DNA of 64,000 nt from an uncultured Gammaproteobacteria bacterium (lineage in GTDB: Bacteria; Patescibacteriota; Microgenomatia; Daviesbacterales; UBA10151), in assembly GCA_964500725.1 (NCBI GenBank), contig CAZCNP010000001.1:138950-202949 (forward strand), given 5' to 3'. The notes beneath the pieces were generated by a model. It ran no database searches and had not been told where the DNA came from. It saw only the letters and a program-made list of their open reading frames with translations. Within the stretch, counting starts at the first letter, position 1. Each line of letters begins with the position of its first letter. Made by a program: the position numbers and the translations under genes. Shown piece after piece: positions 51,489-62,957 of the stretch.

Positions 51489-52313
51489 ATGCAGCATCAG
51501 CAACTTGAAAACTGGCAAAAAATCCCTGAACTTAAAAGTCTTTTTGATCTCACAACAGCGCCTAAACAACTCTATTATTGCGGTGCTTTAAACCCTAAAA
51601 TTTTTAAACACTGCGTATCTGTTGTAGGCAGCCGCAAAATGACTGACTACGGCAGCCGTGTTATTGAAAAAATTATCCCTTCACTCGTTGCGGAAGGCAA
51701 AACTGTTGTTTCAGGTTTCATGTATGGAGTTGACCAATATGCCCACAGGATCTGCGCGGAAAGCGGAGGCAAAACTATCGCAGTTTTGGGATGGGGCATA
51801 AACACACCCCTTGCCGGAGAAGATCTTAAACTGGCCAAAAAAATTATTGACCAGGGAGGAATCTTACTTTCTGAATGGGAGACACAAAGAGCCGCTCACT
51901 GGACTTTTCCTGCAAGAAACAGGGTTGTGGCAGCTCTCTCTTCCGAAATTATTATTGTTGAGGCAGCCGAAAAAAGCGGTTCCCTTATTACAGCCGCTCT
52001 TGCCTCAAAACTTAAAAGGAAACTCTGGGCTGTCCCCGGACCTATTACCAGCCGCACCTCAAAAGGAACAAACCAACTAATCTCATCAGGTAAAGCACAG
52101 ATGTGGTTAGGTAAACCTGCTCAAATCACTTTTCTAAATACCGATAACGACCCAATCATCGATATTCTTCTTTCCGAGGCCTTATCTGCTGATGAAATCG
52201 CCCATAAGCTTAAATCCCCTGTTTCTGAAACAGGAGCAAAGCTATCAATCTTACTGCTCTCTGGTCAAGTCCTTGAAAAAGGAGGAAAATATTACATAGC
52301 CGATGCTAATTAA
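51489..52313 (+). CDS. dprA: DNA processing protein DprA (Smf)
   Basis: [21 protein letters not shown]...[10 protein letters not shown] Rossmann core. Confidence 0.8.
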
Positions 52314-53376
52314 AATCCGTTCAATTGCCAATATTGGTTTAGAGACAATTCCTGTAGATATAGAAGTCGACGTGGCCTCAAGCGGCTTTCCGGGTTTTAC
52401 CATTGTTGGTCTGGCCAGCAAAGCTATTGAAGAAGCAAGGGAAAGAGTAAAAACAGCCATCATCAATTCCAAGCTGAATTTTCCTCCAAAGAAAATCACA
52501 GTTAACTTGGCTCCCGCTGATTTACCAAAAGACGGAGCAGCTTATGATTTACCAATCGCGCTTGGAATTCTTTTGGCAAGCGGACAGCTCAATATTCCGG
52601 ATAATCTTGACTTAAAAAAATCCTTCTTTTATGGAGAGTTATCGCTTGATGGAATGCTGCGGCCAACCAGAGGCATATTGCTTCTGGGTCTTTTTGCACA
52701 AAAAAACGGCTCCGTCACAAAGATTTTCGTGCCGGAAGCAAGCGCTTCTGAAGCAAGTATAGTAACCGGAATAAGGATTTTCCCGGTAAACACTTTATCA
52801 CAATTGGCCGAACATCTACTCGGCAAAGAAATGCACCCGTTAAAGATAAGAGCGATTGCAAAAGACGATGATCTTATTTTAGGAGAATATAACCTTTCGG
52901 AAATTGCCGGGCAGGAACAAGCAAAAAGAGCCTTGATTATAGCAGCTGCCGGCGGGCACAACCTTCTTATGTGGGGTCCTCCGGGAACCGGGAAGACAAT
53001 GCTCTCCCGCGCTTTACCGGGAATCCTTCCGCCACTCAATACATCAGAAGCTCTGGAAGTAACAAGAATTTACTCTGTTTCAGGTCTTTTAGATACCGGA
53101 CAACCTCTGATTTCTAGGCGGCCGTTCCGGGCGCCTCATCATGGCATTTCAAATGCAGGTATGATTGGCGGCGGCAGTAACCCCCTGCCCGGTGAAGTCA
53201 GTTTAGCCCATTTGGGTGTTTTATTCTTAGATGAAATGCCTGAATTTCCAAGAACAGTTTTGGAAAGCCTAAGACAACCTATGGAAGACGGAACTGTTGA
53301 GATTGTCCGCGTGGCAGGACACGTCAAATATCCAGCCTCCTTCACTTTGATTGCCGCAATTAATCCCTGCCCATAG
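52303..53376 (+). pseudogene. comM: comM/yifB (Mg-chelatase-like AAA+ ATPase) 5' portion, truncated by an integrated element
   Basis: Lon-like N-domain plus AAA+ ([23 protein letters not shown]) ending ...[11 protein letters not shown]-stop at 53376, exactly where homologues continue CGY...; the missing C-terminus is at 62445-62957. Confidence 0.8.
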
Positions 53377-53417
53377 GGGTATACATTGTTTGTTAATTGA
53401 AGCTAAAATTATTATAA

Positions 53418-53693
53418 TTGCAAAACAAATATATTAGGAGTATCATTCAATCAATGAAGAAGAAACTATTTTCTTTTATTATCGGTCTTGCTCTCGTCTT
53501 TACCTTTGTTTTGTCTTCTGCGTCTCCTGTCGATGCTTACTCATATAGGGTCAGAGGCTATACAAGATCAAATGGTACTTATGTAAACAGTTATTATAGA
53601 ACTAGCCCAAACTATACAAGATTTGATAATTATTCCACCCGAGGTAACTATAATCCTTATACTGGTAGATTTGGTACAAGAAGCCCTTGGTAA
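53418..53693 (+). CDS. small secreted Tyr/Arg/Asn-rich protein (element cargo)
   Basis: Signal peptide (true start probably MKKKLFSF) then an RGY/YxR-rich low-complexity sequence. Confidence 0.4.
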   Translation: MQNKYIRSIIQSMKKKLFSFIIGLALVFTFVLSSASPVDAYSYRVRGYTRSNGTYVNSYYRTSPNYTRFDNYSTRGNYNPYTGRFGTRSPW

Positions 53694-53740
53694 CATCTTT
53701 TTCCTCCTAGATTATCCCTAGAGTAATACTGATAATATGA

Positions 53741-60787: not shown

Positions 60788-60818
60788 ATAAAAAAACCAC
60801 AGGTTTTACCCTGTGGTT
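60788..60818 (-). terminator. rho-independent terminator downstream of the integrase gene
   Basis: On the minus strand, a 9-bp stem AACCACAGG / CCTGTGGTT with a 6-nt loop, followed by TTTTTTTAT. Confidence 0.55.
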
Positions 60819-60890
60819 GCCGGCTGTTTTGCCGGATGACCAGACTAAAAGGACATTAACTTAAAAGTAACTATATGTCAAGAAAGCAAA

Positions 60891-62441
60891 TCAAGCAATG
60901 AAATTAATCTTTACTCTATCTTTCTTGACAATTATACTGCCAATTAAACCTTGCAGAATTCTTCTTTTTATTTCCAGCTGTGCCTTATCAAATTTAGTAG
61001 AAAAGTCTTTTAAAAAAGCTTTCTTCTGCTTTGTCAGAGCTTCTTTGTCTAAGGATTTTGATAGCTTTTCTTCTAATATTGCAAGTTTATTTTTTGCTTC
61101 TTCAATCTGTGCCAAGTTTTCCTCTTTAGCTACGGCATAATCTTGCAGGGTGATAACACTCGCTTCATAGGCTTGCCAGTGTCTTTTCGCAGCCTCTGTA
61201 AGTGTTTCTAGTGTGGCTACAAGGTGTGCTTTTTCCTGTTCCTCCTCCTTCTTGCCATCGTCTGTAGCTCGTTGCATAAATTCCTTATAAATTGCCGGAT
61301 TGTTTACGATTTGTTGAATCTTGGTTATTACAGCACCTTCTAATTTAGTAGCACCCATAATATGACCCTTACATTCAGTTATTCCATTTCCATAACTATA
61401 TGAACTGGCACAATAGTAACTAAAATATGGTTTAGTATTTGGGTATTTTTCTCTTTGCATAAGACTTCTACGGTTTGTTTTATAATAAATATTTCTGCCA
61501 CAATAACCACATTTAGCTAAACCTACCAATAAACCTTTGCTTCCCACTACCCGGCCTCGTAGTGACGTTTTTTGCTTAATTCTTTCCTGTACTTTATTGA
61601 ATAAATCCTCGGCGACAATTACCGGGTGTGTACCTTTAACAAGTATCCATTCTTCTTTAGGAGTGATTAATCTTTTCCCTCGTTTTGTTGGCCTATGGTT
61701 ATGTCTAACATACCCGATAAATACTGGATTTTTGAGTATTCTTTGAATATAAGCACAAGACCATAACTTACCAGTAGGGGAAGGAATTTTGGACTCATTT
61801 AATTCTGTTGCTATCCTTCTGTAGCTATAGTCCCTATTCCCGTACCAATTGAACATATTTCTTATAACTTCTGCTTCTTTTTCATTTTCTGTTACCTTTA
61901 GAATAACTGAGGGATGGATTGATACATATTCTTTGTCGTAGCCATAGGGCACATCATGTAACATTCCCTTTAATGCCCTGTTTTTAGCCCCCTGGCGGAC
62001 TTTGCGTCTTAAGCTTTTAATATCCAAGTCAGCTTTTATGTCTGATATACCCTCATAGATAACACCGGAATCATCTTCGTCTGGATCGTACTTATCAGGT
62101 GGAATCGGTTCTCTCGGTTGATCAATGGAGTAAACCTGTACCAGGCAGTCTTTTAATTGCTCCCTTATAATTGTTGCTGTTGCTCTATCCCTGGCCAATC
62201 TATCAGCATCCCTTACAATTACTAAATCGAATTTACGAAACTTGGCATCTTCAAGAAGTTTCAGGAGTTCTAATCTGTTGGCTATTTCATGCCCTTTTTG
62301 TGTATCCTGGTAGATATTTACTAATTCCCAGCTATGTTCTTGGATAGTCCTCTTAGCTCTTTCTATCTGGTCTTCGTGGCTTCCTTTATCTGATCCGGCT
62401 TGTTCTTCTGTACTAACTCGGGTATAAATTGCAGTTCTCAT
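60891..62441 (-). CDS. large serine recombinase (integrase)
   Basis: MRTAIYTRVSTEEQ catalytic-Ser N-terminus, resolvase domain, recombinase and zinc-ribbon region (CGYCGR...YYCAS), and C-terminal coiled coil. The ORF-track N-terminal extension to 62546 is actually the comM frame on the other strand. Confidence 0.85.
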   Translation of the reverse strand: MRTAIYTRVSTEEQAGSDKGSHEDQIERAKRTIQEHSWELVNIYQDTQKGHEIANRLELLKLLEDAKFRKFDLVIVRDADRLARDRATATIIREQLKDCLVQVYSIDQPREPIPPDKYDPDEDDSGVIYEGISDIKADLDIKSLRRKVRQGAKNRALKGMLHDVPYGYDKEYVSIHPSVILKVTENEKEAEVIRNMFNWYGNRDYSYRRIATELNESKIPSPTGKLWSCAYIQRILKNPVFIGYVRHNHRPTKRGKRLITPKEEWILVKGTHPVIVAEDLFNKVQERIKQKTSLRGRVVGSKGLLVGLAKCGYCGRNIYYKTNRRSLMQREKYPNTKPYFSYYCASSYSYGNGITECKGHIMGATKLEGAVITKIQQIVNNPAIYKEFMQRATDDGKKEEEQEKAHLVATLETLTEAAKRHWQAYEASVITLQDYAVAKEENLAQIEEAKNKLAILEEKLSKSLDKEALTKQKKAFLKDFSTKFDKAQLEIKRRILQGLIGSIIVKKDRVKINFIA

Positions 62442-62444
62442 TAG

Positions 62445-62957
62445 GAGTATTATACCAACAATGTCAACCCCTGTCCCTGCGGCTATCTTGGACATCCAAA
62501 ACGGGAATGTAAATGTTCCGATAAACAAATCGCCAAATACAGACACCGTATTTCCGGACCAATCCTGGACCGTGTTGATCTTTTTGTTCCGGTTTCGGCT
62601 ATTGAATCTGAAAAACTTTCTCTAACCTCCAACAATCAACCCAACCGGATTTCTTCCGAAGAGGCAAAAAAGCAAGTCATAAAGGCGAGAAAAATTCAAA
62701 ATAAGCGTTTTAAAGATGAAGAGAAAAGAAGTCTCTATACAAATTCCCAGATGCGGAATGCCGATGTCAAAAAATACTGTTTTCTGACATCTGAGGCGGA
62801 AAATTTATTAAAACTGGCCGCTGATAAGTTTGATTTTTCAGCCCGGAGCTATTTCCGTCTGATTAAAGTAGCACGCACAATTGCCGATCTTAAAGCCATA
62901 AAAAATATCCTACCCCTACATATGGCTGAAGCCCTCCAATACAAACAGATTATATGA
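62445..62957 (+). pseudogene. comM: comM/yifB 3' portion (Mg-chelatase C-terminal domain) separated from its 5' part by the element
   Basis: The frame reads ...[43 protein letters not shown]...SARSYFRLIKVARTIADLKA...HMAEALQYKQII*, the exact continuation of the protein ending NPCP at 53376. Confidence 0.8.

Follow-up and report, generated by a model that had tools for sequence, protein, structure and literature searches.

A probable integrative element with its own large serine recombinase in the comM gene of Candidatus Daviesbacteria

Competence genes are frequent targets of mobile elements that integrate by means of large serine recombinases (LSRs). Homologues of Mg-chelatase/comM are the targets of 12.4% of the predicted site-specific LSRs, no class of LSR targets is more enriched than competence genes, and disrupting transformation seems to be a strategy common among the elements that carry these enzymes (Durrant et al., 2022, PMC10083194). 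In Acinetobacter, comM is frequently interrupted by mobile elements, and it has been argued that the loss of ComM reduces their removal by transformation (PMC11472951). The comK phages of Listeria are the classic reversible case (PMC7397523). In the Candidate Phyla Radiation (CPR, Patescibacteria) competence genes are conserved, and transformation has been shown in Saccharibacteria only (PMC10633639). Here we describe a comM gene split by 9,104 bp of inserted DNA (53373-62476) in a stretch of 64,000 nucleotides, the window from now on, taken from contig CAZCNP010000001.1 of assembly GCA_964500725.1 (positions 138,950 to 202,949). We are highly confident that the insert is an integrative element that its own LSR inserted into the comM gene on a Candidatus Daviesbacteria chromosome.

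The closest described systems share some of these features. As in the LSR elements of Durrant et al. (PMC10083194), the insertion is site-specific, lies within the ComM/Mg-chelatase coding sequence with disruption of a competence function, and several diverged integrases use one conserved target site. Unlike them, the integrase belongs here to a separate small clade, the host is a CPR bacterium (Microgenomates), and the element has 9 kb with no virion or conjugation genes detected. The Listeria phages A118/phi10403S (comK) and SPbeta of Bacillus subtilis (SprA, spsM) are also LSR elements that split a gene that precise excision would restore. However, they are full-size prophages (ca. 40-134 kb) for which the directionality factors are known and a regulated excision has been demonstrated, whereas neither virion genes, a directionality factor nor an excised form were found here, and the identity of phage LSRs to the comM-element integrase does not exceed about 26%. 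The AbaR/Tn7-like islands of Acinetobacter baumannii occupy the same gene, and a presumed reduction of transformation would protect them too (PMC11472951), but they move by Tn7-like TniABC transposition with a 5-bp target duplication, while here there are no transposase domains and the junctions are imperfect (9/12). Compactness (9-15 kb) and the combination of integrase, repressor and Prim-Pol-type replication protein are shared with the integrative and conjugative elements of actinomycetes (AICEs; pSAM2, pMEA300; PMC2440964) and with the satellites of the phage-inducible chromosomal island (PICI) and P4 types, all of them either integrated or replicating as a circle. AICEs need a TraB motor of the FtsK/SpoIIIE type, of which only an FtsK-gamma DNA-binding domain of 113 aa is present here, and the satellites carry capsid-redirecting or packaging genes, while no packaging family was detected next to the integrase, repressor and PrimPol-helicase of this element. 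LSR insertion in comM being already published, the element adds an example to a known pattern. An earlier interpretation of the window made from its letters alone (the sequence-only reading) had considered the case notable, which was overstated, LSRs at Mg-chelatase/comM homologues having been published as common (PMC10083194). The novelty is limited to three aspects: the CPR host, the distinct integrase clade with defined attachment (att) sites and a PrimPol backbone lacking capsid genes.

The split comM gene and its attachment sites

The 5' fragment of comM (52303-53376, plus strand) finishes as ...AAINPCP after 357 codons and is immediately followed by a TAG (53374-53376) that the P' arm of the element contributes. 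The sequence-only reading had noticed this end, as well as the frame that, open from 62445, contains SARSYFRLIKVARTIADL and continues through the Mg-chelatase C-terminal motifs up to a stop at 62955-62957, and both were recovered. In the 3' fragment (62466-62957, plus strand) the P arm provides the NPCP codons (62466-62476), and host DNA begins at 62477; its first in-frame start codon does not appear before 62751. When the pieces were joined in silico with the cut after codon 357, a protein of 516 aa was obtained, identical from either of the two candidate crossovers and in agreement with the single ComM of ~520 aa proposed before. It matched the Pfam families ChlI (E=9.5e-39), Mg_chelatase (E=2.7e-92) and Mg_chelatase_C (E=1.4e-26), and one single Mg_chelatase match (residues 198-403) spans the junction at residue 357. 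The order of ChlI, the Mg_chelatase AAA+ module and Mg_chelatase_C is colinear with characterised ComM, the solved structure 8rxd giving one alignment over residues 8-514 (E=2.8e-119). Intact YifB/ComM proteins of 516 aa (P0121-P0124) are 88-90% identical with 100% coverage, and several intact homologues of this length are named Candidatus Daviesbacteria. The truncated version of 357 aa is exactly the NCBI protein MBI4035912.1, found in a 386-kb contig of a Candidatus Daviesbacteria metagenome-assembled genome (MAG).

An uninterrupted comM is found between dprA and yraN in the loci L107 (89% identity), L001 (83%), L060, L009 and L003-L005. Since these relatives keep the dprA-comM-yraN order with an intact comM, the gene has been split by insertion and is not an ancestral split. 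Neither half of the interrupted gene has stops or frameshifts, and each one is 83-89% identical to its orthologues.

We place the element at 53373-62476, which corrects the limits given by the sequence-only reading (53377-62465) by about 10 bp at each end. The left site, attL (53351-53392), would consist of a host B arm (53351-53370), the crossover dinucleotide CC (53371-53372) and the P' arm (53373-53392), and the right site, attR (62455-62496), of the P arm (62455-62474), the CC (62475-62476) and the B' arm (62477-62496). The junction strings AATCCCTGCCCA and AACCCCTGTCCC, which had been pointed out before, are both present and have 9 out of 12 bases in common. The inverted repeats described at the ends are real, GGGGTATACATTGTT at 53376-53390 and AACAATGTCAACCCC at 62457-62471 being complementary at 13 of 15 positions, although the left one lies one base to the left of where it had been placed. 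In the 64 kb of the window, the pattern AACAATGTNNACCCC (with at most one mismatch) is found at only these two sites, 53376-53390 on the minus strand and 62457-62471 on the plus strand, with a chance expectation of 0.10 and two matches in none of 100 shuffled sequences.

Alignment of attL (AATCCCTGC-CC-ATAGGGG) with attR (AACCCCTGT-CC-CTGCGGC) shows two stretches in common, CCCTG and CC. The attP rebuilt from both, TATACCAACAATGTCAACCCCTGT-CC-ATAGGGGTATACATTGTTTGTTAA, is a near-palindrome in which the half-sites agree at 16 of 20 positions (next to the crossover it reads …AACAATGTCAACCCCTGT-CC-ATAGGGGTATACATTGTT…), while in the rebuilt attB, TTGATTGCCGCAATTAATCCCTGC-CC-CTGCGGCTATCTTGGACATCCAAA, the symmetry about the CC is 6/20. 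The central part of this attB (…GCAATTAATCCCTGC-CC-CTGCGGCTATCTTGG…) encodes N-P-C-P-C-G in frame and agrees with the intact site of L107. Strand exchange would have taken place at the CC because, of the shared stretches, only the CC coincides with the centre of the dyad in the rebuilt attP. A crossover within CCCTG was rejected, as it falls off this centre, whereas the CC is central in all three attP sites that could be fully rebuilt. The resulting geometry, an imperfect dyad around a non-palindromic crossover of 2 bp without target duplication, is the same in L088/L089 and L091.

The window being part of a metagenome assembly, we considered that the split could be an assembly chimera, or else the work of a transposon or a tyrosine recombinase. 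However, the junctions are 100% identical at the nucleotide level in five independent Logan assemblies that come from at least two studies, which rules out a chimera, and two NCBI MAG contigs (336 and 386 kb) contain them too. Homologous junctions in other lineages, the lack of a second recombinase or transposase domain in the insert (Pfam) and the imperfect 9/12 similarity of the 12-nt junctions, a misfit for a target-site duplication or for the identical core of a tyrosine recombinase, leave these explanations with a negligible probability.

Just inside both ends there is also a direct repeat, ATTAGGAGTAT…CAATG (20/24 identical; 53433-53456 and 62440-62463), the two copies of which would flank attP within about 100 bp in a circular form; it may be due to chance or be a protein-binding site. 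As to the genomic context, comM overlaps by 11 nt at its start with dprA (51489-52313, plus strand; Pfam DNA_processg_A E=4e-59), with which it probably forms one operon, and at its stop with yraN (UPF0102; 62954-63313, plus strand; Pfam UPF0102 E=1.4e-26). With ruvB, ruvC and dprA just 5' of comM (49301-52313) and yraN 3' of it, the element sits within a cluster of recombination and transformation genes. The loci L001-L008 code for ComM proteins 53-83% identical to the Daviesbacteria one. Six of them have adjacent dprA, comM and yraN; in L002 dprA is found ~7.6 kb upstream, and the end of L006 falls within comM. Their MAGs are labelled “uncultured Gammaproteobacteria” or “Pseudomonadales” (e.g., CAZLKE010000044.1 and CAYSID010000006.1), labels that look wrong for CPR genomes.

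The integrase and its relatives at comM

The gene at the right end of the element, int (60891-62441, minus strand), codes for 516 aa and, as the sequence-only reading proposed, for a serine recombinase. Pfam identifies the Resolvase (residues 4-160, E=2.3e-19), Recombinase (187-290, E=2.3e-25) and Zn_ribbon_recom (304-375, E=2.2e-8) domains, and there is a match to the phrog_95 integrase (E=1e-89). Among the LSRs of solved structure, SprA of SPbeta (9dxh) is the nearest, with one alignment over residues 35-502 (E=9e-19) that covers the C-terminal region. The protein has therefore the catalytic domain together with the Recombinase domain, zinc ribbon and long C-terminal region of an LSR. The serine motif YxRVSTxxQ is invariant in the clade, with Y6, R8, S10 and Q14 constant in an alignment of seven sequences.

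The protein starts as MRTAIYTRVSTEEQ at the ATG 62441, as had been read before. This start is located 15 nt inward of the inverted repeat, and its distance from the inferred crossover is 34 nt rather than 25. Six homologues (P0002, P0003 and P0005-P0008) align from this methionine; the most distant, P0008, has 21 extra residues N-terminal of it. A longer version of 551 aa with a GTG start (60891-62546) was discarded as an artefact, its extension being antisense comM, in line with the sequence-only reading. The P arm contains a promoter-like sequence, GGGACA-17-(TG)TATAAT (62449-62477, minus strand). Its −10 box ends 7 nt before the ATG and is kept with the same spacing in L086 and L087, and its −35 box spans the crossover and would read TGGACA in attP. 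No Shine-Dalgarno sequence was found upstream of int on its strand, and a terminator-like hairpin (60795-60818, minus strand) is located just past the int stop. Both signals are consensus matches only, and promoter-like sites are as frequent in the region as expected (28 observed against 27.9). If the predicted promoter is real, its position suggests a leaderless int transcript with a −35 box altered by the integration state and, together with the hairpin, the sequences suggest a leaderless int unit that would sense whether the element is integrated.

The clade of this integrase is small, with eight clusters that are 42-100% identical before identity drops to 28%. Integrases 82% (L086) and 69% (L087) identical have their attR in comM; for those of L088-L090 (53%) and L091/L092 (42%) both junctions were found in comM, and at the P0007 locus (50%), seen in a gene table alone without DNA, the integrase gene adjoins a truncated comM. 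In every member of the clade with available DNA the CC in comM is the same, and forms positions 1 and 2 of the codon for the second proline in N-P-C-P. The arms are also kept across the relatives as AACAATG…ACCC…CC…GGG…CATTGTT (the P' arm in L089 and L091), and the three fully rebuilt attP sites are palindromic at 14-16 of 20 positions each. This conservation in independent elements backs the interpretation of the inverted repeats as P and P' arms that had been put forward from the sequence. The next nearest integrases (P0009 and P0012, 28%) are not in comM. As the ComM proteins of the hosts are just about 57-60% identical to one another, the site preference is older than those host lineages. 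No relative of the clade was found in IMG/VR, and the best match among 50,697 phage genomes is only 26% identical.

The int gene of L091 (9210-11378) and L092 (501-2669) shows a different arrangement, being co-directional with comM and with no stop before attR. In these two assemblies its frame runs through the P arm into the 3' fragment of comM, giving a 722-aa fusion of the integrase with the C-terminal part of ComM, while it would end as …NPHPQGLS* once excised. The C-terminus of this integrase depends, therefore, on the integration state.

Gene content of the element

From attR, the minus strand contains int, three small open reading frames (ORFs), the gene of a primase-helicase and four more small ORFs. 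The first three (60188-60415, 60408-60566 and 60592-60765, the last one with CxxC zinc-finger motifs) include two that are kept in L086 and L087. The replication protein (57987-60191) has 734 aa and Prim-Pol, PriCT_1 and DUF3987 domains by Pfam; it matches DNA primase/polymerase families of PHROGs and has an 84% identical counterpart in L086. Three small ORFs of the same backbone operon (57152-57460, 57457-57795 and 57796-57984) gave no family matches and are partly kept in L086 and L110. The fourth, ORF120 (56793-57155), codes for a zinc-knuckle and helical protein and is the most conserved accessory gene.

From attL, a block of cargo genes is found on the plus strand, faced by a promoter-like sequence TTGTTA-17-TATAAT (53390-53418), again a consensus match only. 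It starts with a small secreted protein rich in Tyr, Arg and Asn (53454-53693; phrog_29674 E=1.5e-16). Its start had been listed as the TTG at 53418, but the ATG at 53454 is supported by a 71% identical homologue in L105 that begins MKKLFS. A membrane-anchored protein with a CAP/SCP domain (53741-54301; Pfam CAP E=2.7e-15) comes next, followed by a secreted protein with an N-terminal signal-like sequence and a C-terminal Excalibur-like domain (54593-55375; Pfam Excalibur E=2.8e-4, which narrowly misses the cut-off). Two small secreted or membrane ORFs have no family matches (55388-55726 and 55795-56130), the first one with an 84% identical homologue in L086. The block is completed by a winged-helix DNA-binding protein of 113 aa (56149-56490; Pfam FtsK_gamma E=1.4e-23), devoid of the FtsK motor domain, and by an ORF of 98 aa (56500-56796). 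Within it, in the opposite orientation, lies an HTH_3 (Cro/CI-type) regulator (54310-54516, minus strand; Pfam HTH_3 E=1.3e-14) that, judging from its matches to PHROG repressor families, is likely the repressor of the element.

No match to capsid, portal, terminase, tail or lysis families was found by Pfam or PHROGs in any of the 17 ORFs of the element, although sequence profiles could miss very divergent proteins of CPR viruses. Nor did Pfam detect a relaxase, a type IV secretion system or a translocase ATPase, the FtsK_gamma domain being the only related feature. PADLOC, run on 10 ORFs of the stretch 53418-57795 (all but the HTH regulator), detected no defence family, and the Rfam and tRNA scans gave nothing relevant in the region.

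This gene complement has to be weighed against the possibility of a prophage of an unrecognised small virus, or of a phage satellite that uses the capsid of a helper. The size of 9.1 kb and the layout of integrase, repressor and primase-helicase resemble the PICI/P4-type satellites, several ORFs match PHROGs (integrase, repressor, primase and phrog_29674), many small ORFs have no known function and a distant relative, L091, has a Terminase_2 match. However, capsid, portal, large terminase, tail and lysis families are missing from the larger ORFs of L086 and L087 as well, IMG/VR holds no relative of the integrase clade, and the match to phage genomes does not go beyond 26% identity. We regard a virus or satellite as unlikely, and the element is best described as a plasmid-like or satellite-like integrative replicon.

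Elsewhere in the window, four large ORFs lack any Pfam domain at E<=1e-5 (4999-8160, 41135-42919, 45486-46736 and 47006-48838; 1053, 594, 416 and 610 aa). A neighbour of theirs, the ORF at 43741-45489, has an SLH domain, and they are probably CPR-specific surface proteins.

Mobility, consequences for the host and a wider family

According to the mechanism that we propose, the integrase would have recombined the near-palindromic attP with an attB located in conserved codons of comM, at the central CC and without target duplication. ComM stops at residue 357 because the P' arm supplies an immediate TAG, and the truncated protein would lack the rest of the ATPase module; the missing part includes the C-terminal lid domain and GPxLDRxD, a conserved segment. 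In proteins of this kind such a loss is generally expected to abolish the AAA+ ATPase function. Given the stop at residue 357 and the lack of a start codon in the 3' fragment, ComM should be inactive as long as the element is integrated. The excised circle could replicate autonomously, since the element carries a PrimPol-helicase. As for the choice of comM, and following published ideas, the target would offer an almost invariant stretch of DNA, and the loss of the branch-migration helicase would lower the removal of the element by incoming DNA.

Excised and empty forms of the element were searched for. Scans of IMG/VR and of JGI metagenomes with the P'-arm pattern gave one true attL (L104, the same as L089) and chance matches, but no palindromic attP. 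Three look-alikes adjoin DNA other than comM (L098, L099 and L105). In L105 (JGI Ga0180007_10012003) the P'-arm sequence CCATAGGGATAAACATTGTT (7092-7111, minus strand) precedes a similar promoter-like tail, the DNA that flanks it opposite the tail is not comM, and homologues of the small secreted ORF (71% identical), the CAP protein (59%) and ORF120 (73%) are present. L098 and L099 have the same P' arm and tail without shared proteins. These sites could be secondary targets, decayed sites or hybrid junctions.

The element could also act as a reversible regulatory switch (“active lysogeny”), with a regulated precise excision that restores comM when transformation is needed. Excision at the CC would indeed rebuild a perfect in-frame comM from its undamaged halves, int retains its promoter-like site and terminator-like hairpin, SprA of SPbeta (the closest solved relative) works by such switching, and the Listeria comK case is documented (PMC7397523). 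Nevertheless, the coexisting excised (attB/attP) forms expected of such a switch were not found in any assembly, a directionality factor could not be identified, a replicon of its own and variable cargo are what a selfish element would have, and the intact halves may merely reflect a recent insertion. On balance a switch seems to us rather improbable.

We give similarly little credit to an immobilised remnant, i.e., an element formerly mobile that is now fixed in the lineage and unable to excise. Only the integrated form has been seen, identical in the five assemblies and in the NCBI contigs; the element is smaller than that of L086 (>11.6 kb, with extra genes), and its GC content (37.3%) matches that of the host flanks (40.5% and 35.9%), with no clear contrast between both. 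However, int is full length with all the residues invariant in the clade, both att arms are intact and symmetric, and neither the replication gene nor the comM halves show decay. In our reading the element would still be mobile.

Some results weigh against the integrative element as we describe it. An uninterrupted site exists in sister species, but none was found for this exact strain: the joined ComM is missing from ~15 billion proteins, and the best intact relative is 90% identical. The integrase cluster contains solely gene calls of the integrated form (516, 534 and 551 aa), and no attP junction appeared in the IMG/VR and JGI scans. These searches covered assemblies, not reads, and are weak negative evidence. 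The placement of the crossover at the CC draws on symmetry and on comparison with relatives rather than on attP and attB of the same strain. No candidate directionality factor could be established, and capsid, terminase, relaxase and type IV secretion genes are missing from the element and from the larger ORFs of L086 and L087.

ORF120 connects the element to a larger set. It is 63-75% identical in L086, L087, L105, L110 and L112, and has more than 110 clusters of homologues at 90% identity; all those with an organism name belong to the Microgenomates group. The protein has a zinc knuckle (CxxxxxxxxxC…CFRH) plus three helices, and its AlphaFold2 model (pLDDT 80) has no fold match in the PDB (best Foldseek E=2.1). 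In other small elements it co-occurs with a different LSR (L110/L111; L110:10001-10369) or with tyrosine integrases (L112:10001-10372). ORF120 was considered as a directionality factor and discarded, as it is far more widespread than the integrase clade and occurs with unrelated integrases. This distribution suggests that the Microgenomates group harbours a mosaic pool of compact elements sharing ORF120. It is conceivable, although we suggest it only tentatively, that they constitute an undescribed family confined to Microgenomates, formed by compact (~6-12 kb) integrative replicons without capsid or conjugation genes, with ORF120 as marker and with a native CPR integrase/att system.

The element leaves the understanding of serine integrases or of comM-targeting elements unchanged. 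In practical terms, a warning for annotation comes from MBI4035912.1, the “YifB family” protein of 357 aa, and from the integrase calls of 534 and 551 aa, all of them artefacts of the insertion. The integrase comes from a CPR bacterium with its attP and attB, and its target is a near-invariant stretch of comM in many CPR genomes; as there are few genetic tools for CPR, the set is a candidate for site-specific integration. For the biology of these microbes, with this element the conflict known to exist between mobile elements and natural transformation reaches the CPR/Patescibacteria as well. If the ORF120 family is real, its comM-targeting branch would prevent naturally competent CPR cells from curing themselves of the element by transformation, and the integrase of this branch, together with its att pair, would be the first native CPR system of site-specific integration to be defined.

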